From: Pseudomonas phage vB_PseudoP-SA22
Direction: 5' to 3' (one strand)
Sequence record: OP793496.1
Length of the DNA stretch: 45,458 nt
Below are positions 2,461 to 41,615 of this stretch, piece after piece. Each line of letters opens with the position of its first letter. Positions within the stretch are counted from its first letter, which is position 1. The translations under genes were made by a program, and so were the position numbers. The notes beneath the pieces are model-generated. The model was given only the letters and a program-made list of their open reading frames with translations, searched no databases and had not been told where the DNA came from.

Positions 2461-2536
2461 TGGGATGTAGCTCAGTTGGTAGAGCAGGGAGCTGTTAACT
2501 CTCAGGTCGTAGGTTCGAGCCCTGCCATCCCAGCCA
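2461..2536 (+). tRNA. tRNA-Asn (anticodon GTT)
   Basis: Hand-folded cloverleaf: acceptor tgggatg/catccca, D arm gctc-agttggta-gagc, anticodon loop cuGUUaa, T arm gtagg-ttcgagc-cctgc, discriminator G, encoded CCA. Confidence 0.85.
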
Positions 2537-2540
2537 TTAT

Positions 2541-2616
2541 GGCCCATTAACTCAGCGGTTAGAGTGCTCCCCTGTCTAGGGAGAAGCCGTCGGTTCGAAT
2601 CCGACATGGGTCGCCA
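2541..2616 (+). tRNA. tRNA-Asp (anticodon GTC); position 37 is U, which is unusual
   Basis: Acceptor ggcccat/atgggtc, D stem actc/gagt, anticodon stem ctccc/gggag with loop cuGUCua, T arm gtcgg-ttcgaat-ccgac, encoded CCA. Confidence 0.75.
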
Positions 2617-2621
2617 ACAAA

Positions 2622-2708
2622 GGTCGTTGTAGAGGTAGATGGCTACTACCATCCGGTTGTAACCCGGACGCCTTAGGCTAGAGGTTCAATTCCTTCCTTC
2701 GACCACCA
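2622..2708 (+). tRNA. tRNA-Tyr-like (anticodon GTA), type-II with long variable arm; acceptor stem has two T:T mismatches
   Basis: Anticodon arm tccgg-uuGUAac-ccgga; variable arm cGCCttaGGCt; T loop ggttcaattcc; 3' end gaccaCCA; 87 nt. Acceptor 5' ggtcgtt vs 3' ttcgacc pairs only 5/7. Confidence 0.5.
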
Positions 2709-2712
2709 TTAA

Positions 2713-2789
2713 CTCCTCGTAGCTCAGTTGGTTAGAGTGCCTGTCTTGGACACAGGAGGTCGTAGGTTCGAGTCCTACCGGGGTGACCA
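2713..2789 (+). tRNA. tRNA-Pro (anticodon TGG)
   Basis: D arm gctc-agttggtt-agagt, anticodon stem cctgt/acagg with loop cuUGGac, T arm gtagg-ttcgagt-cctac, acceptor ctcctcg/cggggtg (one mismatch, one G:U), encoded CCA. Confidence 0.75.
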
Positions 2790-30393: not shown

Positions 30394-30908
30394 TCAACAA
30401 GCTCTTGCCAAGTCATGCCGAGTACCCGGAGGAGGTAGTTGAACAGTGCGTGACTGACCACTCCATCCTGAAGGCAATACTCAAACATTTCTTCGGAGAA
30501 CTTGGAGAAGTCGTTGAAATCACCCTTGTGACACTTCAGGAATCTACCCCAGGCACCCAGGGAATGACCCTGGGGTCGGTCTGGCCAAGTCAACCTCGAT
30601 GCAACCAAGGTGTCGTAGCTTCGATCCGGAGGGATGATGATCCCATGAAGTTTCTCAAGGACCCGGTTGTCGTAGTCTAGGATGTTATGCCCGACCACGA
30701 ACTTTGCATGGGCGATGATGCGGTAGAACACATCCATTTCCTCGGGCCGGAATCCCCGGACTATCCCAGTTGGAATGTCTACTACAACAGCGCACCATAG
30801 CCTTGTGACCTCATTGAAGAGTCCATCCCCCTCAAGGTCATAGATCACGTAATCAAATTGGGGTGTCATCGTCAGCAGGTACCTCGTCGTAACTGCCCTC
30901 ACGCTCAA
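30360..30908 (-). CDS. DnaQ-like 3'-5' exonuclease (DEDDy): stand-alone proofreading domain of the split DNA polymerase
   Basis: Exo I YVIYDLEGDGL, Exo II VVGHNILDYD, Exo III YCLQD. Confidence 0.75.
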   Translation of the reverse strand: MSVRAVTTRYLLTMTPQFDYVIYDLEGDGLFNEVTRLWCAVVVDIPTGIVRGFRPEEMDVFYRIIAHAKFVVGHNILDYDNRVLEKLHGIIIPPDRSYDTLVASRLTWPDRPQGHSLGAWGRFLKCHKGDFNDFSKFSEEMFEYCLQDGVVSHALFNYLLRVLGMTWQELVEWRTVDWLKSE

Positions 30909-32562
30909 CCAATCGGCCCGTCTCAGGGTTATACTTGGTGAACACTAGGCCAGTGTTACCGTAGTTCCTGTCCTTGATTACACGGATTCGACTCTCGTGC
31001 TTCTCTTCGCCGTCAGCCTGCTTGTTCCGCTCGAAGCCGATCATAAGCTGACACCACCGCTGCATAGCTCGGGAACCAGTGAACTGGCTTTCCTTTACTT
31101 CAGCACCCTCCTCGTGGGTACGGTTACCCTTGGGTGGGTTAAGGTGGGAGAAGATGAAGATCCGCAGTCCTAGCTCGTCGGCCATCCCTGCGAGCTCTGT
31201 ACAGATACGAGCGATCTCCGTGTTCATTTCGGAAGGACTAAGGTGGTTGGTCATGGCGGTCATGTTATCCAGGAGGATAGTCTTCACATCCATGGCTACT
31301 GCCCAGAAGCGAATACACTCCTTGATATGATCCCAGTCGTTCTGACCCTTATTCTTCCACATGAAGAGCTTGCCACGTAGTTTACCCGCAGCATCTTTAA
31401 AGGCTTGCTCATCCCACTCAATATCCGGTCGGTGGAAGGGCACGTTGGCTACCTTCCCCGCGATATTCTTAAGTGTCATGGCTACCTGCTCTTCCAACAG
31501 GAATGTCCCTACGTTCTCCCCGTGCTCAATGCAATTCCAGGCAGCAATCTCGTGGGCCAACAGGGTCTTACCGATACCAGTACCACCGCCTACCCCGATG
31601 ATTTCACCATCACGCTGACCGTAGGTAAGGTTGGTTAGGCCCTCCCACGGATAGCTCTTGCCCCACTTAGGGGGTTCCAGAGCCTCAGCATATACCTCAT
31701 CGACAGTCACGGAGCAGTCAGGAGACTTCACCTTGCTGCCGAATCGGATCATCTGGTAGACCTCATCCCCCCGATTACGCATGAGCATGTCGTTAGCATC
31801 CTTCAGAGGAAGCTCGACAAACTTACACTCAGGGTACAGGGCACGTACTTTTTCTACTGACTTACGCCCCTCGTCATCAGCATCGTGGCAATAGATGACC
31901 TCGTTGAACCGATCAAGGACACCAGACTCCTTAAGGAATGCGATATCCCTCCCAGCAGAACCAACACCCGAGGACCAACTAATGGATGCCTGCCGAAGAT
32001 GCTTCCACTTCTCGGGCAGCTTCGACTCCATGATCTGGGCTACAGACATAGCCGACAGTTCATCCTCGCAGATGACTAACCGCAGGTGTCCCATATCCTT
32101 ATGCCGAAGGGTATTATACCCGAAGGGGTCTACACCGCCCTTGGGGCTTCCACGGTAGTAGAAGGCCTTAGGCTCTAGGATTCGGACGTTGAACGCTCGG
32201 TACTCCCCTTCGCGAGTGCGTGGATAGTAATGCTCGATAACGTCCTCACCATTTTCTTGTGATAGACCAACACGTACCCCGTACCGTTCAGCGATTGATT
32301 TGCTGATCTTTCGAGTATCGAGGGCTTTAATTGGATACTCAAGGACTTCGTTGACTTCATGGATGATATCCTCCTCGGATTTCTCCTTACGCTCTGGTAC
32401 CTTGAAACCCTCTTCTAGGACTTCGTAGTGGCCACAGCGGTTACAACTTCCGAACCGAGTACCCTTTTCTGTATCAACGAACAAGATGAGGTGATTTCCT
32501 GTTTTATCCCCACCTTTAGCTCGGCAACCCGGACAAGCCGTATCACCGATGATTTTCTTCAC
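30853..32562 (-). CDS. Primase-helicase, T7 gp4-like (Zn-ribbon + TOPRIM + DnaB-type helicase)
   Basis: CPGCRAKGG...CNRCGH zinc ribbon; TOPRIM LVICEDELSAMSVAQ; Walker A GVGGGTGIGKT; FIFSHLNPP. Confidence 0.9.
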   Translation of the reverse strand: MKKIIGDTACPGCRAKGGDKTGNHLILFVDTEKGTRFGSCNRCGHYEVLEEGFKVPERKEKSEEDIIHEVNEVLEYPIKALDTRKISKSIAERYGVRVGLSQENGEDVIEHYYPRTREGEYRAFNVRILEPKAFYYRGSPKGGVDPFGYNTLRHKDMGHLRLVICEDELSAMSVAQIMESKLPEKWKHLRQASISWSSGVGSAGRDIAFLKESGVLDRFNEVIYCHDADDEGRKSVEKVRALYPECKFVELPLKDANDMLMRNRGDEVYQMIRFGSKVKSPDCSVTVDEVYAEALEPPKWGKSYPWEGLTNLTYGQRDGEIIGVGGGTGIGKTLLAHEIAAWNCIEHGENVGTFLLEEQVAMTLKNIAGKVANVPFHRPDIEWDEQAFKDAAGKLRGKLFMWKNKGQNDWDHIKECIRFWAVAMDVKTILLDNMTAMTNHLSPSEMNTEIARICTELAGMADELGLRIFIFSHLNPPKGNRTHEEGAEVKESQFTGSRAMQRWCQLMIGFERNKQADGEEKHESRIRVIKDRNYGNTGLVFTKYNPETGRLVEREGSYDEVPADDDTPI

Positions 32563-32940
32563 TTACCCCTCCAGTTGACTCTTGAGAACCAGGCTTGGTA
32601 CAGCATTCACGTTGCCCGGTAGGGTTTTATAGGGAGTTGTTACGAAGGTACCGTAGACCTCCTCCAGTTCCCGAAGACGATCCTCGATTTTCTTCAGTCG
32701 CTCCCACATGAAGCGAATTCCAATGGATTCGTCACAGTACCCACCGTAGCTGGTCTCGGGACTATCCGAGGCCTCCGGAATCTTGGAGACCTCGATAGAG
32801 TCTTGGAGGTGTCGCTGGGAAGCTACAAGGCCCAGGATCTCCTTGAGAAGCATCTTCTGGGCATGTAGCTCTTGGTGTCCGAAGGTATTCGGAGTATCGC
32901 GGTAGACTTCTACTGCTTTGTCTACGGTCATTTCGTTCAT
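32563..32940 (-). CDS. Hypothetical protein (125 aa)
   Basis: ORF track; ATG overlaps the GGCT-like gene stop. Confidence 0.4.
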   Translation of the reverse strand: MNEMTVDKAVEVYRDTPNTFGHQELHAQKMLLKEILGLVASQRHLQDSIEVSKIPEASDSPETSYGGYCDESIGIRFMWERLKKIEDRLRELEEVYGTFVTTPYKTLPGNVNAVPSLVLKSQLEG

Positions 32941-33338
32941 TATACTGCTCCTTGTCGTTTTGCCAGGTGTGCCTTCCAGTCGCCATCCTTGACGATATCC
33001 ATCGCCATGTGGCTATCCTGATGGTACACCAGGGCCTTGATGCGTTCCCCATTGATTCGGAAATCCTTGAGGGTACGATCATACCAACCCGGATAACCCT
33101 CTAGGGCATCCAGGTTCTCCAGCATTTCATCCCCCGCTTCGCCCTCGGGGAGTTGCCAGATTTCACCTACGATGAGGTCAGCACGGGAGGCGAAGGAGAG
33201 GATGGGGAAGCCGCCAGCGGAGTACATCAGACCCCGCTCGCAGGATACAGCATTGCCGATGAACTCGGCCCCTTCCAGAAGGTAGTGGTTGTACAAACCT
33301 GACAGGAGAGTACCATAAACGAAAACACGAACAGCCAT
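32940..33338 (-). CDS. Gamma-glutamyl cyclotransferase-like (AIG2/GGCT fold) protein
   Basis: N-terminal VFVYGTLLSGLYNHYLL (YGTL motif) and conserved acidic region EGEAGDEMLENLDALEGYP; 132 aa, typical size. Confidence 0.6.
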   Translation of the reverse strand: MAVRVFVYGTLLSGLYNHYLLEGAEFIGNAVSCERGLMYSAGGFPILSFASRADLIVGEIWQLPEGEAGDEMLENLDALEGYPGWYDRTLKDFRINGERIKALVYHQDSHMAMDIVKDGDWKAHLAKRQGAV

Positions 33339-34219
33339 TAGATAGTCTCCTCGAAGATTTTGCTGAAGCCCTTGACGTATGCCTCCAGGGCGCTGCCTTC
33401 AGCGTCCAGACCTGGGGCGGTGTTGATCTCCAGGACAAAAGCCCGGCCAGTGGCGTGCTGGAAGATAATGTCTACTGCACCGAAGTCCAGTCCGGCCACC
33501 TGGATAGCCTCGGCAGCCGCAGACAGTGCCTGCTCTGCACCTTCACGGTCAGCCGCATCATTCACCCCATAGACCCAACCGCCGGCTACGTTACGGACGA
33601 TGCTGTTGCCGTTATCTTCCTCGCCATCGGCGCGACGACGGAGCTTGACTTGCAGGAGGACTGCTTCCCCACGGATGACGTGGACTCGGAACTCGGTACG
33701 CTTACCAACGATGCCCTGGGTAAACAGTTGTGCCCTGGTGATAACCTCCGGGATGTGGGTGTGACCGTAGATGTGTACCGGGTAGTGACCCTGACGGCGA
33801 AGGTTGTCGATTGCAGTAACCTCGGCGTCGTTGATCGAACATACCAGATGGATACCACGACCGCTATGGCCGTTCAGATCAGTACGTGCATACATACGGC
33901 CAGTGATGTTGAGGACACCCAGGGCGTCTTCCCATCGCTCTGTCCAACGGGGAATCAGGTGAGGGGCATTGGCCTCGAAGTGGCGGAAGAACTCCAGCTT
34001 GTTAGAGCAGCGGTGAACAACTGCCGGGTCGTTGAGGAACACAGGGGCAATATCCCGGAGTCGGTGAGCCTCTGCACCAACGGTACCCCAGTTGATTACC
34101 GCAGTACCCGCACGACCCCGATAGGTAGACCCCTCGGAGCGAAGGATTCGAGCACCCAGGGCGTTACGAAGAGCGACAGCACCAGCAGAGGGGCGGGAAC
34201 CTTTATAGATATAGAACAT
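33338..34219 (-). CDS. ATP-grasp carboxylate-amine ligase (RimK/glutathione-synthetase-like)
   Basis: C-terminal catalytic signature DIIFQHATGRAFVLEINTAPGL (E-x-N...PG), VRNVAGGWVYGVND; 293 aa. Confidence 0.7.
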   Translation of the reverse strand: MFYIYKGSRPSAGAVALRNALGARILRSEGSTYRGRAGTAVINWGTVGAEAHRLRDIAPVFLNDPAVVHRCSNKLEFFRHFEANAPHLIPRWTERWEDALGVLNITGRMYARTDLNGHSGRGIHLVCSINDAEVTAIDNLRRQGHYPVHIYGHTHIPEVITRAQLFTQGIVGKRTEFRVHVIRGEAVLLQVKLRRRADGEEDNGNSIVRNVAGGWVYGVNDAADREGAEQALSAAAEAIQVAGLDFGAVDIIFQHATGRAFVLEINTAPGLDAEGSALEAYVKGFSKIFEETI

Positions 34220-34253
34220 GGCAAATCTCCTGTTTCTGTTGAGGGTAGTGAAG

Positions 34254-34339
34254 CCAGCAATAGCCCCTGGAATCCTAAGTTAGATCCCATGTACGCATCT
34301 TAGGAACCGGCATGGGTCGGCCAGGGGCTATTACTAACG
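34254..34339. repeat. Conserved long stem-loop element, copy A (CCAGCAATAGCCCCTGG ... CCAGGGGCTATTACTAACG) with nested inner inverted repeats
   Basis: 12-bp perfect outer stem; shares both arms with element at 40594..40637; sits directly upstream of SD of the ATP-grasp gene on the - strand. Confidence 0.7.
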
Positions 34340-34346
34340 CACTACC

Positions 34347-34568
34347 TTACTCGAAGTAGTCTTCGAAGAGTCGGTCGATAGCTTCCGCAATGACTACCGG
34401 GGCCGGTACCAGGAATTCCTCGTCCGGGTTGGCATCATTGAGTTCCTGCTCCTTGACTCGACGAATCGACTGGATCTTGTCCAGGGTGTCACGGGAGAAG
34501 GGATACTTACGGGTTGCGTCGGTCTCCATCTGGATCACTACTTGACGCTTCATCGTTACTTGGGTCAT
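34347..34568 (-). CDS. Hypothetical 73-aa protein, last gene of the amidoligase operon
   Basis: ORF track; 10-nt gap to GATase gene. Confidence 0.4.
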   Translation of the reverse strand: MTQVTMKRQVVIQMETDATRKYPFSRDTLDKIQSIRRVKEQELNDANPDEEFLVPAPVVIAEAIDRLFEDYFE

Positions 34569-34577
34569 TTTGACCTC

Positions 34578-36110
34578 CTATTTATTTTCGATTACACACT
34601 CACCACAGATGAACTCGCACTCATCCAGGCTACCAGTGAACTTGGCACCTTCGTATACCGTCAGATGACGATTACGCTGGTCATATGCGGTTGGGATCTT
34701 CCCGCAAGATGCACATCCCTGGGACACGAAGTCCCGAAAGACATGCACGTTGTTGAAGGTGTGGCCTTGCACCTTCAGGGGGTAGGTGATGTTGGCCGGA
34801 GGGGTGTTCCCCGAGGTGCCGCCGACTTGAACCCTGGGTTTAGAATGGGATTTCGTCTCCGATGAGATCGTTCCAATCCTCAACACTGGGGTAGTCTCCC
34901 CAGGAGTCGGCCGATGCTTTGGGTCCAGGCAGCTTACCGCCAGATCCTCGACAGTAACCTTGAGATCACGGTCTTGGCCGATGAAGTAGGCATTGGATAT
35001 ACTCCCTCGGAGGACGGTGTATCCGTGGACTTTGGCGACGTTGATGCCATGAGCTTCGATGAGAAGGTTTTCTTCACGCTCGATTCCAGTGACAGTTCCG
35101 TATTCGCTTCCGTTTGCGTAGGCCTCGATCTTGACAACATCGAAGGTGACGAGTTGCCGGTGCTTGAAGGTGCTACCTGCTGCGTCGAGGTTGTTGTTGA
35201 TCCGGAGGGTGTTCCTTGCGTACGCATCGCCAGTCGTTCCATACGACGAGCCCGCTTGGCTGCCTTTCGTTCCCGCTTGGCTGCCTTGGCTTCGGCTGTA
35301 GTCATCGTAGTCCGAGACACCGATGTAGCGACTCCACCATGCCGCTGTTTGCCTTTCGCTTTCGGGAATCGGGAGGTCCAGAAACGTGACCGGAGTGGTC
35401 TGGGGTTCTGCACCCTTTCGCACTCCGGCCTCCGTGAACGGGATAGTTACCAGGACTTCGGCCTTCAGTTCAGCGATGGGAGAACGCAGGCGGATCTTAG
35501 CATTGGGTCGCTCCAGGAAAACCTTGAGCATCCCAGGCTCCGATGCCCATACGATGGTCCCGGTGGTGGTAACCGCCATGAACAGAGGACGATCCTCGTT
35601 ACGGATGAAGTTCAGGCTACGTTCCTTGGAATCCCACCAGACAACCGCAGCAGCACCAGAGAACTTCTCCTCGAACGTCTTCTTGGCACCGTGGTTGGCA
35701 ATGGTAGCGCATAGCATGTTGGAATCCACGTTGTACTTATCATTGCCGTCCAGCAGGTGCAGGCCCCAGGTATCTACGGTTCCGTTATGTACCATGGTGA
35801 TGTGGTCTACCTGGAAGGGGTGGGCATTACCATGGTCCGTCTTGTCGCCCATCGTGGCGTAACGGTTGTGACCCATGTAGATGCGAGCCCGACCCTTGTC
35901 CAGGAACTCCTTGGTTTCAGGATCAGCCAGGAAGTCGTAGGCATCTACTGCCCGCTTGTGAATTCCTACCTCGTTCTTAACCGGGTCGATCTTGGCCAAA
36001 CCGGTGGCGTGAGCACCACGGATAATATCCACGGCCAGGAGGGATTTGAGAAGAGCGATTTCGTTATCACTCGCGTTAGTTGTGGCACAGAAGCCTACCA
36101 ATCCACACAT
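34578..36110 (-). CDS. Class-II (Ntn) glutamine amidotransferase fused to an unknown beta-rich domain with C-terminal C4 zinc ribbon
   Basis: MCGLVGF...GAHATGLA...GHNRYATMG with Cys2 nucleophile, as in PurF/GlmS/AsnB N-terminal domains; low-complexity linker SQGSQAGTKGSQAGSS; C-terminal CASCG...CGEC. Confidence 0.75.
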   Translation of the reverse strand: MCGLVGFCATTNASDNEIALLKSLLAVDIIRGAHATGLAKIDPVKNEVGIHKRAVDAYDFLADPETKEFLDKGRARIYMGHNRYATMGDKTDHGNAHPFQVDHITMVHNGTVDTWGLHLLDGNDKYNVDSNMLCATIANHGAKKTFEEKFSGAAAVVWWDSKERSLNFIRNEDRPLFMAVTTTGTIVWASEPGMLKVFLERPNAKIRLRSPIAELKAEVLVTIPFTEAGVRKGAEPQTTPVTFLDLPIPESERQTAAWWSRYIGVSDYDDYSRSQGSQAGTKGSQAGSSYGTTGDAYARNTLRINNNLDAAGSTFKHRQLVTFDVVKIEAYANGSEYGTVTGIEREENLLIEAHGINVAKVHGYTVLRGSISNAYFIGQDRDLKVTVEDLAVSCLDPKHRPTPGETTPVLRIGTISSETKSHSKPRVQVGGTSGNTPPANITYPLKVQGHTFNNVHVFRDFVSQGCASCGKIPTAYDQRNRHLTVYEGAKFTGSLDECEFICGECVIENK

Positions 36111-36121
36111 TGTATTTCTCC

Positions 36122-37297
36122 TTAGTACATATCTGGTTCGATTGTTACGCCGGTATGGCGCTGAAGGTGCTGCGGGTTATCCATGAGCAGTACGAAGGCA
36201 TCTTGAAGAGCCTCTTGGTCCTCCAGAAGGTCTCGTACACGCACTTGGTGACCAATACGACGCAGAGAAGTTACCGCAGTAATCGCCGTATCCAGTCGAA
36301 CCTGGGTACCTGGGACCATTGCCAAGTTGTACCGCTCTGCTGCACCATCGAGTAGTCTGGAGGTAGTAGATCGAGCCAGCAGCAGCCTACGATCCAAAAC
36401 CCTCTGACGCTCACGTTCCTGCTCCCGGAGACGACGCTGACGGTTCTGTTCATCCTCCAGAGGGTCTACCCCGGAGCGAACAAATCCCATGGTTGCTACC
36501 GCGAGAGTAGCACTGGCGATCCCCATCTCACGACCACCTGGAGACATTTCATAGTCCGGAGATACCCCCAGGAAGAACACATCACGGAGATTCACCTCGG
36601 AGAGAACCTTGAGGAACTCTTCCAGCGGGGTTTCTGCGTGAGCCATAGCGAAGGCCTTGAGACACAACATACGCTGCATCAGGCCTACCATCTCCTGCCG
36701 AGTAGTGAGAGCATGGGCCCCACGGAACTCGATGGATCCGAAGTTGTGGGTTACCTGGAGGTTCAAGGCCGAATACTTTGGCCAGGAGGTAAGACCCAAG
36801 ACTTTCTCTCGGTCACCTTCCGGGGCCAGGATACGGCGACCAAAGGTCTGGGCCAGCCAGTCGTTGCTGAAGAACGGGATGCAGAAGTTACTATCCCGAC
36901 GATACGGCTGACAGTGATCGAAGAAAACATCCTCGAATGCCATGTAGGTCAGGACCGTTCGCTCATAAACCGGCCACTCTACGTCCCGCATATCCATGTG
37001 CAGGTGGGTGGAGCAACGGAAGGTGGGGGCCGGAGGGGTTTCTTCCATCGCACTAACGAAGGATTCAACCCGAGTGATTGCCTTCTGGCCAGAGGCGGGA
37101 CCGGAGAAGACATACTCCATACCCTCCCGCAGAGAACCGTCACCCTTCAGATCCCACCCATCCACTTCCGGCCAGTTGTTGAGGCCTTCCAGTTCGACTT
37201 CGAAACCGAAGGAAGCAACCGCAGGCAGTTCCTCGTGGTGTTCCGGGGCAATGATCTGGTTCTTACGGAACCCTATCTGTGTGCCAATAACTGACAT
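36122..37297 (-). CDS. Glutamine-synthetase-like amidoligase (GCS2/YbdK-type carboxylate-amine ligase), paralogue 1
   Basis: N-terminal FGFEVELEG (E-x-E), CSTHLHMDMRD (H-x-H), GSIEFRGAHA (E-x-R): the three signature strands of the GS/GCS2 fold. Confidence 0.6.
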   Translation of the reverse strand: MSVIGTQIGFRKNQIIAPEHHEELPAVASFGFEVELEGLNNWPEVDGWDLKGDGSLREGMEYVFSGPASGQKAITRVESFVSAMEETPPAPTFRCSTHLHMDMRDVEWPVYERTVLTYMAFEDVFFDHCQPYRRDSNFCIPFFSNDWLAQTFGRRILAPEGDREKVLGLTSWPKYSALNLQVTHNFGSIEFRGAHALTTRQEMVGLMQRMLCLKAFAMAHAETPLEEFLKVLSEVNLRDVFFLGVSPDYEMSPGGREMGIASATLAVATMGFVRSGVDPLEDEQNRQRRLREQERERQRVLDRRLLLARSTTSRLLDGAAERYNLAMVPGTQVRLDTAITAVTSLRRIGHQVRVRDLLEDQEALQDAFVLLMDNPQHLQRHTGVTIEPDMY

Positions 37298-37842
37298 AGC
37301 AAGTCCTCCTGGTTCTTGAATTGTTCATCTGCGGACAGTCGGCCATCTACCATCTGACCAACCTTCACCCCCTTCCAGTGAACTACCCCATCCTTGATGA
37401 AGAAGTCCCGGTGGGAGGGAGCAGAGATCATTTCCTCGGCCTGGGTGAAGATTCGGATCATCATTTCGCCGGTGATAGCCTGTTGGCCATGGTTCAGCAA
37501 GATGTTCCGTGGATCTACACCCTTACGCTGGGTCCGGTTGTTCACGAGGAATGATACATAGGTATCACGAACCCCACGGCCAAAGACGTCATAGTACCCA
37601 CTGGAGGGCCGCACGCTTTCTACCTCGCTGTAGACAACCCCACCGTAGTAGTTACTGCCGTCGGGTCGGTACACGTTGCCAAGGAGACGAAACCCATCGA
37701 ATTGACGGTCGTCACCAATGGACTCGGTATCGTCCACGTACACTACCCGAGGCTCGCCGTCCACCCGGAAGAAGGCATAGGTGGAGGAGTAGTACATGTT
37801 GAAGTCTCCGGACAACCGATGGCGATTATTCAGGTCATTCAT
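37273..37842 (-). CDS. Hypothetical protein (189 aa) within amidoligase operon
   Basis: Overlapping start/stop with both neighbours. Confidence 0.45.
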   Translation of the reverse strand: MNDLNNRHRLSGDFNMYYSSTYAFFRVDGEPRVVYVDDTESIGDDRQFDGFRLLGNVYRPDGSNYYGGVVYSEVESVRPSSGYYDVFGRGVRDTYVSFLVNNRTQRKGVDPRNILLNHGQQAITGEMMIRIFTQAEEMISAPSHRDFFIKDGVVHWKGVKVGQMVDGRLSADEQFKNQEDLLCQLLAHR

Positions 37843-38635
37843 ATACCACCCCCAGCGCTTTAAGTGCAGCTACCGCCGCGGCGCCGTCGTTCTCGTTGAT
37901 GATTCGCTGGACTTCATCGCCAGATACGATGGACTTGTACTCCTCCAGGAGGTGCTTGGAGGTGTAAGCCCGTACTGCCATTTCATAGACCCACTCGGTC
38001 AGATCGACAGAGAAGATCCAGAAGTTCGACAGGCTACGGTACTCGCCGCCGTAGGGCTTATAGCGCATTGCGCCAGCCTTGCCGTACAGCTTCTTACGCT
38101 GGGTGTCACCGTCGAGGATGACAGACGCCAGGCCCAGGAGGTAGTCACACATCTGCATGACCTCGCGGGTGTTCGCTTTGGTGACTCGCTCGATGTGGCT
38201 GAAGCCGATATGGACGTGGCCGCCAGCAGTTCGCAGGGTCGGAGGGGCATCCTTCGGCATCACGTTCTGACGACGAGTCCAGCAGTTGTAGTCCGGCTCG
38301 CAACCGAAGACGTAAGCCTGGGGACCGAAGCTGCGGAGGAGTTCCTCGTCGTACAGGTGAGACGACAGGTTCTCGATGATGTTCATGCCGAAGGGGTGGA
38401 GCATCTGGGCACCAAGGAGTCGGACGGAAATGATCCGCTTGACGAACTCTTCCTTGGTGCTGGCCGGGTCGATGTTGTACTCCAGAAGAACGTTGTCTTC
38501 TTGGACGGCACCACCGGCTACAGCCAAGGGCGCTTCCTTGGTTCCACCGATGAAGCCGATGACGCTCTGGGGGTTACGGTCGTAGCCGACGAAAACTTCG
38601 GGATCTGCACCGATCAGGGGGATTGCGTTGTTCAT
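37835..38635 (-). CDS. Glutamine-synthetase-like amidoligase, paralogue 2 (shorter)
   Basis: LIGADPEVFVG (E), TAGGHVHIGF (H-x-H), YGGEYRSLS (E-x-R). Confidence 0.55.
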   Translation of the reverse strand: MNNAIPLIGADPEVFVGYDRNPQSVIGFIGGTKEAPLAVAGGAVQEDNVLLEYNIDPASTKEEFVKRIISVRLLGAQMLHPFGMNIIENLSSHLYDEELLRSFGPQAYVFGCEPDYNCWTRRQNVMPKDAPPTLRTAGGHVHIGFSHIERVTKANTREVMQMCDYLLGLASVILDGDTQRKKLYGKAGAMRYKPYGGEYRSLSNFWIFSVDLTEWVYEMAVRAYTSKHLLEEYKSIVSGDEVQRIINENDGAAAVAALKALGVVYE

Positions 38636-39588
38636 TGCATGTTCTCCAGTTTTTCGAGGATTTCGGGGATGCTGTATTGGCTGGTGGGTACGACCTCGGA
38701 CCTTTCCCGACCTGGGTCACCTACGTCAATGGTGATTGGGGCCATGATGGAAAGGATTCGGTCATTAGGTACACCTTCAAGACCGTCGCATTCGATCAGG
38801 TAATCATCCTTGGTATACCCCTGCCACAACTCAGCGTCGTGATGCTTGAGCTTGTCCTTGAACTCTTCGCGAGTCCGCTCATGGATGCTCTTAATATCGA
38901 AGTAGGTGATATTCTTGTACCCACCTACGATACCATCCATGACCTCGCTTATGTAGCTGTCATCCACCTCCCAGCCGTGGCTCTCGCAGCCCTCCCGGTA
39001 TTCACCAGCAGTCACCGGGAACATGGCCGGATAGCTGTCGCAATGAGCAGTGCTACCTACCTGGGCACAAGCCGCGAGGGTGAGAATCTCTGCATTGCAG
39101 CCCAGGATTTTATCACGATTTTCCTGGGTGATGCGACGCATGGAATCACCTACACACCACAAGCGATCTCCCATTCGGAGAGCACAGATGATGGCCGATG
39201 CGTTCTTCCTGAGGTCCACCCGTACATACACTGCCTGCCGGCGTCCTGGGGGTGAGAAGTGGTTGGGATCACTGAGATTCTGGAGATCATCGTCGTAATT
39301 CCACCAACGGGTAGGCCAGTCGATAGAAGCCGAGAGGATACCGCCATCGGTAATCCTGTTGACCAGATCACTGTTCAGGAACTCCACCAGTTTACCAGAG
39401 GTATTCTCGTGGGTAGATACCAGCAGGTGGCCAACCCCGGTAACCCACCGGTCGCCCCCAACGTCGGAGGTCCGGTCGCAATAGGCCCCGAAGCAGTTTG
39501 TATATTCGGCCATCATTTTGACCGAGTAGTGGTGTACCACAGAGCCCTCGGCATCATAGTACACATTATGGGCTGCATACATTCCCAT
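38632..39588 (-). CDS. Hypothetical protein (318 aa), Cys/His-rich, within amidoligase operon
   Basis: ATGA overlap with paralogue 2; AGGAG SD. Confidence 0.45.
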   Translation of the reverse strand: MGMYAAHNVYYDAEGSVVHHYSVKMMAEYTNCFGAYCDRTSDVGGDRWVTGVGHLLVSTHENTSGKLVEFLNSDLVNRITDGGILSASIDWPTRWWNYDDDLQNLSDPNHFSPPGRRQAVYVRVDLRKNASAIICALRMGDRLWCVGDSMRRITQENRDKILGCNAEILTLAACAQVGSTAHCDSYPAMFPVTAGEYREGCESHGWEVDDSYISEVMDGIVGGYKNITYFDIKSIHERTREEFKDKLKHHDAELWQGYTKDDYLIECDGLEGVPNDRILSIMAPITIDVGDPGRERSEVVPTSQYSIPEILEKLENMQ

Positions 39589-40569: not shown

Positions 40570-40593
40570 TTGTTTTCTCCTTGGTTGAGTTAG

Positions 40594-40637
40594 CCAGCAA
40601 TACCCCCAGGACAGGAATACTAGGGGTATTACTAGCG
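40594..40637. repeat. Conserved long stem-loop element, copy B (CCAGCAATACCCCCAGG ... CTAGGGGTATTACTAGCG)
   Basis: 14/17-bp stem, 9-nt loop; arms homologous to element A; immediately 5' of the operon first gene SD on - strand. Confidence 0.7.
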
Positions 40638-40657
40638 ACCTCTAAGTTACTTAGAAG

Positions 40658-40790: not shown

Positions 40791-41615
40791 TTAGCGAACG
40801 TTGATGAAGGGCATGGCTTGGCCGCCGGTGACGTAGGTAGGCAGCTTGCCGTCCCACTTCTCGATGGCATTCAGTTCTACCACGCCGGGGTTCTGGCGGA
40901 GGGCTTCACCCTGGATGCGGAGGCTTTCGGCCTTACCTTGTGCCACCAGGATAGCCGCTTGCTTCTCACCCTCGGCTGCCGCGATAGCCTTAGCTGCCTC
41001 GGCCTGGGTCTGACGCAGTTCGTTCTCGCGCTGCATCGCCGTCTGAGTGGCCTTGATCTTGGCATTGATCGCCTCGACCACCTGCGCCGGCAGACCGATC
41101 ATACCGTTGAGGTACAGGCTTTCGACGATGATGCCACGGGTGGAGAAGTGCTCACGGACGGCAGCTTCGACTTCCTTCACGAAGGCTTCCTTGCCCGGAC
41201 CATAGATGGACTCGGCGGACTTTTTGCTGCTGGCGTTGTTCACGGCGTTACGGACCACCTGCGGCACGTTCACGCTTACGATCTCGTTCATGCCCTTGCG
41301 GTAGGTCTGGAACAGCAGGGGTGCGCTACCCGGAGCAGCCCGGAGGGTGACGCCGATGGGGAAGTCCAGCTTCAGGCCGTCCTTGTCCTGGGCAGTAACC
41401 ACCGCCAGATCGAAGTTCTGGTTGAAGGTGGGGAACTTGAACAACTCCTCGTTGGGGGTCAGGAACTTCCAGCCGACCGGAGTTTCCTTCAGATCGACGC
41501 CTTTGGAGTCGCCCATCATGTTGACGACGACGCCGGTATAGCCAGCGGGAACCTTGGAGCAACCTGCGGTGATTGCGAGAGCAGCAATGGCCAGGAGGCC
41601 GAGGATTTTCTTCAT
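40791..41615 (-). CDS. SPFH (band-7/stomatin/HflKC-like) domain lipoprotein
   Basis: Lipoprotein signal MKKILGLLAIAALAITAGC; SPFH-like core then Ala/Glu/Gln-rich coiled coil AMQRENELRQTQAEAAKAIAAAEGEKQAAILVAQGKAESLRIQGEALRQ. Confidence 0.65.
   Translation of the reverse strand: MKKILGLLAIAALAITAGCSKVPAGYTGVVVNMMGDSKGVDLKETPVGWKFLTPNEELFKFPTFNQNFDLAVVTAQDKDGLKLDFPIGVTLRAAPGSAPLLFQTYRKGMNEIVSVNVPQVVRNAVNNASSKKSAESIYGPGKEAFVKEVEAAVREHFSTRGIIVESLYLNGMIGLPAQVVEAINAKIKATQTAMQRENELRQTQAEAAKAIAAAEGEKQAAILVAQGKAESLRIQGEALRQNPGVVELNAIEKWDGKLPTYVTGGQAMPFINVR

Follow-up and report, generated by a model that had tools for sequence, protein, structure and literature searches.

The ATP-grasp ligase gene and the gamma-glutamyl cyclotransferase-like (GGCT) gene of Pseudomonas phage vB_PseudoP-SA22 are probably both parts of a larger phage-specific, middle-expressed module that builds and trims amide linkages, mostly gamma-glutamyl ones. 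The window analyzed here (the whole stretch of 45,458 nucleotides, record OP793496.1) is a complete genome of a LUZ24-like Bruynoghevirus, and its version of the module comprises a COOH-NH2 ligase, protein X, an Amidoligase_2, a class-II GATase-like amidohydrolase, the ATP-grasp ligase and the GGCT. The module, with up to eight genes, occurs in 311 cultured phages, therapeutic phages of Pseudomonas and E. coli among them, and in no fewer than 546 IMG/VR contigs.

The pair and the module are already known. The two genes are annotated as gp21 and gp22 in the LUZ24 RefSeq record, and Iyer, Abhiman, Burroughs and Aravind reportedly described in 2009 a phage neighbourhood of COOH-NH2 ligase, Amidoligase_2, GATase-II, ATP-grasp and AIG2 genes. 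With the pair annotated since LUZ24 and the module discussed in the comparative-genomics literature, the observation on its own adds little. The module has been named a "putative peptidoglycan modification module" (PMC11945000), and our literature searches found no biochemical or genetic experiments on any of its members. LUZ24 itself has the same genes in the same order, 92% protein identity at gp21 and all five Pfam/PHROG families; with no substantive difference between the two, vB_PseudoP-SA22 is another isolate. What the present analysis adds is that the ATP-grasp gene goes with the COOH-NH2 ligase and X, that the GGCT gene goes with Amidoligase_2, and that Peptidase_C26 is a frequent partner elsewhere. 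This split, together with the convergence of three cleaving classes on the module, narrows the choice of first experiments. The genes and other features concerned are the following.

30853-32562: primase/helicase gene, abutted by the gp23-like gene
32563-32940, minus strand: 125-aa protein with no assigned function (LUZ24 gp23; phrog_8197)
32940-33338, minus strand: GGACT/AIG2-like gamma-glutamyl(amine) cyclotransferase, 132 aa (LUZ24 gp22 homologue; phrog_2520)
33336-33340, minus strand: TAATG stop/start overlap of the ATP-grasp and GGCT genes, read directly from the sequence
33338-34219, minus strand: ATP-grasp carboxylate-amine ligase, 293 aa (LUZ24 gp21 homologue; phrog_2599), of a RimK/LysX/ArgX-like, phage-restricted family
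34240-34346, minus strand: long conserved RNA hairpin, located in the gap of 127 nt that precedes the ATP-grasp gene, from folding and covariation
34347-34568, minus strand: DUF7195 small protein, 73 aa (PF23825, 5e-19; LUZ24 gp20 homologue)
34578-36110, minus strand: class-II (Ntn, Cys2) glutamine amidotransferase-like protein, 510 aa (LUZ24 gp19 homologue)
36122-37297, minus strand: Amidoligase_2 (PF12224) ligase, 391 aa (LUZ24 gp18 homologue)
37273-37842, minus strand: protein X, 189 aa, with no assigned function (LUZ24 gp17; phrog_4877)
37835-38635, minus strand: phiEco32-like COOH-NH2 ligase type 2 (PF14395), 266 aa (LUZ24 gp16 homologue)

A first-pass annotation of this DNA had proposed an ATP-grasp gene with an EINTAPGL motif and an AIG2/GGCT-like gene with a VFVYGTL motif, overlapping at 33338 and hence co-translated. 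Both ORFs were found where it had put them on the minus strand: the ATP-grasp ORF holds FVLEINTAPGLD, with EINTAPGL at nt 33407-33430, and the cyclotransferase ORF begins MAVRVFVYGTL. Reading the junction directly on the minus strand (...GAGGAGACTATCTAATGGCT) confirmed a 1-base overlap, base 33338 being common to the ATP-grasp TAA stop (33340-33338) and the GGCT ATG. A GAGGAG Shine-Dalgarno sequence lies 9-14 nt upstream, within the end of the ATP-grasp gene, and the overlap is kept in relatives L002-L008 (gap 0, -3 or -7). The coupling has no meaning specific to the pair: since the identical TAATG joins the GGCT gene to the gp23-like gene, which in turn abuts the primase/helicase gene, it is the ordinary packing of a tight four-gene run. 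Judged by their sequences, with PHROG matches of 2.6e-102 (ATP-grasp) and 4.3e-43 (GGCT), both ORFs are genuine genes and not chance ORFs.

The five amide-bond activities proposed to lie in a row are indeed all present (COOH-NH2 ligase, Amidoligase_2, GATase-II, ATP-grasp and GGCT), with two other genes interspersed; the corresponding families (PF14395, PF12224, class-II GATase, ATP-grasp and AIG2) all fall inside 32940-38635. The pair had been placed 130 nt downstream of the GATase operon, but its distance from the GATase gene is 358 nt, an interval occupied by the DUF7195 gene and by the 127-nt gap that the hairpin fills. The GATase-like protein carries a CxxC...CxxC region at its C-terminus and has subthreshold matches to the N-domains of GlmS, PurF, EgtC and AsnB. 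Protein X has an Arg-rich motif, R-x-P-x-R..(K/R)QG, and its gene always lies between the two GS/GCS-type ligases. No solved relative of Amidoligase_2, of the COOH-NH2 ligase or of U400, which is encoded in distant modules, was detectable by sequence. DUF7195, which ends in ...EDYFE and is encoded just upstream of the LysX-like ATP-grasp, was considered as a LysW-like carrier and rejected, because its C-terminus is variable (YFE, YFP, LFP) and the family is confined to LUZ24-like phages. Upstream of the COOH-NH2 ligase gene lie gp14/gp15-like genes; these were likewise considered as divergent counterparts of two genes seen in distant modules, U400 and Peptidase_C26, and no similarity was detected. 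The window contains no ACP-like gene, and PADLOC returned no relevant defence or anti-defence matches.

The ATP-grasp protein appears to be an active ligase of the RimK/LysX/ArgX type. Following the catalytic template of PMC4431377 (section 5), its invariant residues are K74, R112, the G-rich loop GHSGxGI, E176/R178, R209-N210, D250 and E264-x-N266. K74 (in NKL) is the linker Lys between the pre-ATP-grasp and RAGNYA domains; it aligns with the RimK DKL motif and is invariant in 79 sequences. R112, an Arg where the usual residue is Lys, stands at the end of RAGNYA strand 2 and is followed by the ssxGbGl loop (G117-H-S119-G-x-G122-I), while R178 is the first-strand Arg typical of peptide ligases, and D250 and the ExN motif (E264, N266) are the Mg/ATP-binding residues of the kinase-like domain. 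The predicted structure has the three-domain ATP-grasp fold (AF2 pLDDT 94.5). RimK, LysX and ArgX, rather than PurK or PurT, come out nearest to the protein both by sequence profile and by fold: the best matches of the family profile, at E 6e-9 to 9e-8, are the RimK proteins of Pseudomonas and E. coli, the best fold matches are ArgX, LysX and RimK, and Ddl enzymes are the second-best neighbours by both structure and sequence. As far as sequence can tell, it is a homologue within the RimK-like clade and not a RimK orthologue. The window protein has no match to PF08443 at E<=10, a model that some members of its family barely pass, and it scores 17.4 bits with TIGR00768 (cutoff 143.4) and 23 bits with the MptN model (cutoff 350). 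PHROG and RefSeq nevertheless name it S6 glutaminyl transferase. Weak matches to PF18299 and PF14243 raised the R2K clade as a candidate, which we rejected because the protein keeps two features missing from that clade, the ssxGbGl loop and the Lys of the linker.

More than 3700 homologues of the ATP-grasp protein were found, and the family is essentially phage-restricted: a search of 185,579 species genomes gave only 32 matches, most of them on MAG contigs of phage size. Compared with RimK/LysX/ArgX, which add an amino acid onto a protein C-terminal Glu, and with MptN/CofF, the phage protein shows only 16-18% identity, and its scores lie far below the family cut-offs. It differs from them in having Arg112 for the strand-2 Lys, an invariant INWG motif in the N-domain, a 35-aa insertion (around residues 129-165) in the LUZ24-like subgroup, and a constant linkage to GS/GCS-type ligases in phages.

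The 132-aa protein looks like an active cyclotransferase of the AIG2/GGACT class. PF06094 matches it over its full length with 73.3 bits, where the gathering cutoff is 22.8, and E 3.3e-20. It has the GGCT fold, and all 24 homologues share, without variation, E80 and the N-terminal substrate-binding motif (YGTL/YGSL in the family, here Y8-G9-T10-L11). The residue opposite E80 in the LDDFE of 2kl2/1vkb is E82, and Glu82 is the catalytic residue of human and mouse GGACT; the protein keeps this catalytic Glu. Its close known systems are GGACT, YkqA, PH0828 and YtfP, all AIG2-like (PF06094), a family that includes BtrG.

The distribution of the two genes across phages separates their roles. Co-occurrence was counted on a biased sample, the best 80 IMG/VR matches per query, at loci flanked on each side by 8 kb of sequence or more (36 anchored on ATP-grasp, 24 on GGCT). 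GATase-II and Amidoligase_2 were present at all 36 distant ATP-grasp loci, the COOH-NH2 ligase and a conserved protein X of about 190 aa at 33/36 each, Peptidase_C26 at 28/36 and GGCT at 18/36. The gene next to ATP-grasp was Amidoligase_2 at 19 of these loci, the GATase at 6, the COOH-NH2 ligase at 2 and GGCT at none. Anchored on GGCT, 21 of the 24 loci had Amidoligase_2 and 9 had ATP-grasp; nine had only Amidoligase_2 and GGCT, often 24-70 nt apart. From these counts, ATP-grasp is a core member of the module, GGCT is an optional accessory that tracks Amidoligase_2, and their tight coupling is lineage-specific; the expectation that the pair is conserved together in relatives did not hold. The phiEco32-like E. 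coli phage NJ01 has an identical module gene order, with ATP-grasp followed by GGCT within 700 nt, and adjacency also occurs in the distant locus L063 and in L159. Since GGCT lies just downstream of ATP-grasp in LUZ24-like and phiEco32-like phages, a direct hand-off of substrate from one to the other may occur there. No fusion of the two was found among the homologues: the 399-aa protein P0066 (C-terminal half of ATP-grasp, GGCT and the next gene) is probably a frameshift or annotation artefact, the ATP-grasp region of its record aligning in two pieces at about 66% identity, and a GGCT domain is absent from the remaining long homologues (419-434 aa). Three unrelated gamma-glutamyl-cleaving classes are tied to the module, namely the Ntn-GATase with its subthreshold EgtC-like match, the PuuD-like Peptidase_C26 and AIG2/GGACT, and the presence of a Peptidase_C26 gamma-glutamyl hydrolase in most distant modules supports gamma-glutamyl chemistry overall.

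We propose the following working scheme for the module. By analogy with the superfamily to which it and the COOH-NH2 ligase owe their assigned chemistry, Amidoligase_2 (GS/GCS-type) would activate the gamma-carboxylate of Glu and form gamma-Glu-amine bonds. The ATP-grasp enzyme would then add an amino acid, most likely Glu, to the growing conjugate (or an amine onto a terminal carboxylate) through an acyl-phosphate mechanism, as do GshB, RimK and LysX. GGCT would cyclise an N-terminal gamma-glutamyl unit to 5-oxoproline and release the amine, acting in parallel to, or in place of, the Ntn-amidohydrolase and, in other phages, the Peptidase_C26 gamma-glutamyl hydrolase. The 1-nt overlap of LUZ24-like phages would reflect operon compaction and co-expression with replication genes, and not a private two-enzyme cycle. 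The target may be a precursor of peptidoglycan, the one that the literature predicts; polyamines or other amines, cofactor tails and proteins are further candidates. A more specific version seems to us a long shot: a phage-specific conjugation pathway in which a carrier or target would receive a gamma-glutamyl-linked peptide built by the COOH-NH2 ligase, the Arg-rich X (phrog_4877) and ATP-grasp. Erasing or deprotecting would fall to GGCT, Peptidase_C26 or the Ntn-amidohydrolase as alternatives. LysW/LysX and pupylation offer analogies in which the peptide might be placed on X itself or on a host macromolecule, and such a pathway, if true, would be a new kind of phage amide-tagging or protecting-group system, active during genome replication.

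The module resembles several characterized pathways. A GS/GCS-type ligase is combined with an ATP-grasp enzyme in glutathione synthesis (GshA/GshB) and with a class-II GATase-like amidohydrolase in ergothioneine synthesis (EgtA/EgtC), and a GS-type ligase with Peptidase_C26 in the gamma-glutamyl-putrescine pathway (PuuA/PuuD). Unlike any of them, the phage module merges all three logics in one operon and adds protein X, and there is no orthology at curated thresholds.

The first-pass annotation had read the two genes through the BtrJ/BtrG pair of butirosin synthesis, in which ATP-grasp would protect an amine with a gamma-glutamyl group that GGCT later takes off as 5-oxoproline. Its broader idea of connected gamma-glutamylation and deglutamylation survives as proposed chemistry of the module, whereas a self-contained pair is contradicted by the co-occurrence counts, and we consider such a dedicated pair unlikely. 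As in butirosin synthesis, the genes of an ATP-grasp ligase and an AIG2-type cyclotransferase lie together, both enzymes look catalytically intact, and the overlap conserved in all LUZ24-like relatives and the arrangements in NJ01, L063 and L159 would suit a dedicated pair. It would however have to accommodate the absence of adjacency at all 36 distant loci, half of which have no GGCT, the 15 of 24 GGCT loci without ATP-grasp against 21 with Amidoligase_2, and the failure to find a fusion. There is also no BtrI-like carrier here, and the nearest characterized relatives of the phage ATP-grasp use Glu as nucleophile and not as acyl donor: in RimK, LysX, ArgX and MptN alike the amino acid supplies the attacking amine, and the carboxylate belongs to a macromolecule or a cofactor. 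Their products, with alpha-linked Glu or with a gamma-amide on N-blocked Glu, are not cyclisable by GGCT. The best fold matches, ArgX, LysX and RimK, all act on protein C-termini, which would suit a RimK-like tailing activity that adds Glu to the C-terminus of host S6, of another host protein or of phage X and so reprograms the host, with GGCT functionally unrelated. The RimK profile matches, the S6 glutaminyl transferase label and the co-inheritance of ATP-grasp with the conserved X are consistent with it. Still, we regard tailing as improbable: the scores are far below the RimK family thresholds, the identity is only 16-18%, neither X nor DUF7195 ends in a conserved acidic tail, and the obligatory linkage to two further ligases and up to three amidohydrolases is foreign to RimK systems.

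Peptidoglycan remodelling by the whole module is conceivable but doubtful. The module would add or amidate up to three unusual stem-peptide linkages and so block superinfection or ready the wall for lysis, with ATP-grasp as a Ddl/Mur-type ligase and GGCT acting on gamma-D-Glu linkages. This prediction, repeated in PMC11945000 and PMC10580990, agrees with Ddl being the second-best neighbour of ATP-grasp and with the hosts of all 311 cultured phages that encode it being peptidoglycan-bearing proteobacteria; a universal substrate would also fit N-domain residues that are strictly invariant across hosts. The idea is nonetheless purely contextual, signal peptides and cell-wall-binding domains were not detected, and the genes share location and expression with those for DNA replication and nucleotides (the primase/helicase and, in L064, ThyX) rather than with those for lysis. 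The module directly precedes the replication genes in nearly every phage, which could instead suggest that it hypermodifies nucleotides or DNA; ATP-grasp would then play the part of PurK, PurT or PurD, and the GATase that of PurF. Amidoligase and GATase genes have been noted beside thymidine-hypermodification clusters in viromes (PMC8989533). We disfavour this reading as very improbable given that DNA of Bruynoghevirus U17, which has the same module, is cut by 11/16 restriction enzymes (PMC11945000); moreover, RimK, LysX and ArgX rank above the Pur enzymes for ATP-grasp, and the window has no 5-hmdU kinase, aGPT-Pplase or similar gene.

The assignment of the module to middle expression comes from PaP3, in which ORF32-48, including the ATP-grasp gene (ORF43) and the primase gene (ORF40), form a single middle temporal class (PMC4707531). 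A scan for sigma-70 promoters and terminators around the ATP-grasp/GGCT pair gave nothing exceeding background. The hairpin at 34240-34346 is stable (MFE -55 kcal/mol, z -4.56), with compensatory changes in 9/20 pairs and two invariant U.G wobbles, and has a second copy at 40585-40645 on the minus strand. Because this conserved element lies between gp16-20 and gp21-24, the two gene groups may differ in processing or expression.

Both ORFs of the pair proposed in the first-pass annotation, the ATP-grasp gene and the GGCT-like gene, were found in the ORF list and in the sequence, with the stop/start overlap at 33338. The 45,458 bp make up the whole genome of a Bruynoghevirus, a LUZ24/PaP3-like podophage of Pseudomonas aeruginosa, with its early and middle genes on the minus strand, and region 32500-38700 shows 96-98% identity to dozens of deposited phages. 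The genes of the locus are as follows.

Genes at and around the ATP-grasp/GGCT pair (strand in brackets)
30853-32562, primase/helicase gene
32563-32940 (-), gene after the GGCT-like gene
32940-33338 (-), GGCT-like ORF, 132 aa, N-terminus MAVRVFVYGTL
33338-34219 (-), ATP-grasp ORF, 293 aa, containing FVLEINTAPGLD
34347-34568, DUF7195 gene, 73 aa
34578-36110 (-), class-II GATase-like protein
36122-37297, Amidoligase_2 (PF12224)
37273-37842 (-), protein X gene, 189 aa, LUZ24 gp17, phrog_4877
37835-38635, COOH-NH2 ligase (PF14395)

At the ATP-grasp/GGCT junction, GAGGAGACTATCTAATGGCT on the minus strand, base 33338 is common to the TAA stop and the ATG, and a Shine-Dalgarno sequence is located within the end of the ATP-grasp gene. 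The overlap thus exists, but it is not specific to the pair: an identical TAATG links the GGCT gene with the gene after it, which in turn abuts the primase/helicase gene. The coupling is therefore the usual close packing of four consecutive genes, nothing peculiar to these two. The pair had also been placed 130 nt downstream of the GATase/amidoligase operon; however, the DUF7195 gene intervenes between it and the GATase gene, and the remaining gap is 127 nt. The count of five successive amide-bond activities is correct, since the COOH-NH2 ligase, Amidoligase_2 and the class-II GATase-like protein neighbour the pair.

Pfam did not recognize the ATP-grasp protein at E<0.01, and in PHROGs it matched phrog_2599 (2.6e-102). 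Across alignments of 22 and 79 homologues we found every catalytic element of the ATP-grasp template (PMC4431377): the linker Lys (K74, within NKL), the glycine-rich loop (GHSGxGI), the peptide-ligase Arg (R178), R209-N210, and the Mg-binding residues D250 and E264-x-N266. RAGNYA strand 2 ends in a positive residue, normally Lys; here it is R112, an Arg that is invariant across the phage family. An I-N-W-G motif is likewise invariant in the N-terminal domain, and the LUZ24-like proteins carry an insertion of ~35 residues (about 129-165) that is missing from the ~250-aa family majority. The family profile matched RimK structures (Pseudomonas, E. coli) over nearly the full length with E-values of 6e-9 to 9e-8, and cyanophycin synthetase and Ddl at ~1e-4, yet NCBIfam gave far-subthreshold matches only, led by MptN and the RimK family. 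The protein is thus neither a RimK orthologue nor a purine enzyme, but a divergent member, specific to phages, of the RimK/LysX-like clade. Weak Pfam matches had suggested the R2K clade, which the linker Lys and the glycine-rich loop rule out.

The family is essentially confined to viruses: it is encoded by at least 546 IMG/VR contigs and by 311 of 50,697 cultured phage records (listed hosts all proteobacteria), and 185,579 species genomes yielded only 32 loci, most of them on MAG contigs of phage size. A 6.86-Mb Pseudomonas tolaasii contig carries homologues of both the ATP-grasp protein and X (P0053 and P0150; locus tags B5P22_31000 and B5P22_31025), which suggests an NV1-like phage, integrated or co-assembled, in a bacterial genome record.

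The GGCT-like protein matched PF06094 (GGACT/AIG2-like) over its full length (3.3e-20), as well as phrog_2520 (4e-43). Among 24 homologues Y8-G9-T10-L11, E59, D77, E80 and R88 are invariant, and E80 aligns, in the LDDFE motif, with Glu82 of mammalian GGACT, the catalytic residue of that enzyme. Both proteins of the pair look catalytically competent. In some marine or metagenomic phages (IMG/VR loci L009, L010, L021-L023 and L053), a second GATase-like gene downstream of the ATP-grasp gene overlaps a longer GGCT-like ORF (208-274 aa) without the catalytic Glu (LDRIMDN, IDELQQN, MDRQFCL), possibly an inactive, substrate-binding GGCT derivative.

Aiming at the conservation of the pair, we scanned all ORFs of 80 IMG/VR loci with ATP-grasp relatives and 80 with GGCT relatives (the 80 top matches for each query, not an unbiased sample) using iteratively built HMMs for every module protein, with assignments upheld by Pfam spot checks. 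Only distant loci in which the anchor gene had 8 kb or more on both sides entered the counts. Loci anchored on ATP-grasp always contained GATase-II and Amidoligase_2 (36/36 each), and commonly COOH-NH2 ligase and the ~190-aa X (33/36 each) and a Peptidase_C26 (gamma-glutamyl hydrolase/PuuD-like; 28/36); GGCT was present in only 18/36. Amidoligase_2 directly adjoined ATP-grasp in 19 of these 36 loci, GATase did so in 6 and COOH-NH2 ligase in 2, whereas GGCT never did. Conversely, GGCT-anchored loci had Amidoligase_2 in 21/24 and ATP-grasp in only 9/24; nine loci had Amidoligase_2 and GGCT alone, frequently 24-70 nt apart. The usual distant operon is [GGCT]-U400-C26-GATaseII-COOH-NH2 ligase-X-Amidoligase_2-ATP-grasp, followed by primase/helicase, with GGCT and ATP-grasp at opposite ends.

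From this co-occurrence and gene order we distinguish two sub-modules: one consists of GATase-II and Amidoligase_2, optionally joined by GGCT, and can occur alone; the other, COOH-NH2 ligase, X and ATP-grasp, is found only alongside the former. ATP-grasp is thereby shown to belong to the core of the ligase module, and GGCT to be an accessory whose conserved partner is Amidoligase_2. The specific BtrJ/BtrG-type pairing of ATP-grasp with GGCT is thus not borne out by comparative genomics. It may still hold in the LUZ24 and phiEco32 lineages: tight ATP-grasp->GGCT coupling (gap 0 to -7) was seen only in the LUZ24-like group, and phiEco32-like phages such as NJ01 keep the same order more loosely, with three small ORFs between. 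In LUZ24-like phages GGCT adjoins ATP-grasp, whereas most distant modules have Peptidase_C26. In these (L009-L081) the Peptidase_C26 gene (phrog_7218; for example L059:5485-6180 and L064:5196-5876) lies upstream of GATase-II, often preceded by U400 (360-425 aa); no homologue of either was found anywhere in the window.

Characterised ligases of the GS/GCS superfamily (GS, GshA, PuuA, PafA) activate the gamma-carboxylate of glutamate. By analogy with this superfamily we infer the chemistry of Amidoligase_2 and COOH-NH2 ligase, for which no solved relatives were detectable by sequence. Since three unrelated classes that cleave gamma-glutamyl amides accompany the module (an Ntn hydrolase of class-II GATase-like type, whose EgtC match is below threshold, Peptidase_C26 and AIG2/GGACT), gamma-glutamyl chemistry is its most economical reading, resembling fused GshA/GshB, EgtA/EgtC and PuuA/PuuD logics. 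The ATP-grasp would most plausibly join an amino acid to one of the intermediate's carboxylates, after which GGCT would take off an N-terminal gamma-glutamyl unit in the form of 5-oxoproline. The protecting-group idea may therefore hold in outline, with Amidoligase_2 instead of ATP-grasp installing the group.

The literature predicts peptidoglycan modification (PMC11945000, PMC10580990); other candidate substrates are amines such as polyamines, the glutamyl tails of cofactors, or a protein. A link between LUZ24 gp9 and PauA2, a gamma-glutamylpolyamine synthetase, is an unconfirmed yeast two-hybrid match (PMC4635203). Global DNA hypermodification is unlikely, as 11/16 restriction enzymes cut the DNA of a Bruynoghevirus that carries this module as well (PMC11945000). 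The homologous PaP3 genes (ORF42-48) belong to the middle temporal class, shared with replication genes (PMC4707531).

Protein X forms a divergent but clear family (phrog_4877, including the 189-aa protein here) that occupies the slot between COOH-NH2 ligase and Amidoligase_2 in 33/36 distant modules and in NJ01. It has conserved motifs (LGY.N, R-x-P-x-R-R-x-(W/K)-(R/K)-Q-G-L and K-G-x-x-VG) and no Pfam or PDB relatives, and could be a scaffold, carrier or substrate. In the GATase-like protein the Ntn-amidotransferase domain spans only about 200 aa; residues about 210-510 comprise a low-complexity Ser/Gly/Gln linker, a beta-rich region and a C-terminal, zinc-ribbon-like CxxC...CxxC. Since it has no synthase domain, it fits an amidohydrolase or ammonia-donor subunit, not a GlmS/PurF-type enzyme, despite common database labels.

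[quoted passage not shown] We found no experimental characterisation of the module in the literature.

The 127-nt gap itself is filled by a conserved, strongly structured RNA motif, present in two intergenic copies on the sense strand that bracket the gp14-gp20 block.

Copies of the RNA motif
34240-34346 (-), copy 1, MFE -55 kcal/mol, z -4.56
40585-40645 (-), copy 2

The motif reads 5'-TWGTAATA-[covarying 6-9 bp stem]-[8-70 nt variable apex]-[stem']-TATTGCWG, with no U-tract and no matching Rfam family. Aligning copy 1 with relatives L004-L008 revealed compensatory changes in 9/20 pairs and two invariant U.G wobbles, so the hairpin is an RNA structure, not a DNA cruciform; it is a candidate processing site, mRNA stabiliser or atypical terminator. 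Elsewhere in the genome we observed a gene for an SPFH/Band-7 protein in the early region, at 40791-41615 (-) (PF01145, 2e-21; "lipoprotein" in GenBank relatives), and a cluster of three tRNA genes at 2461-2786 (+) (Rfam RF00005, 62-67 bits), likewise reported in other Bruynogheviruses.
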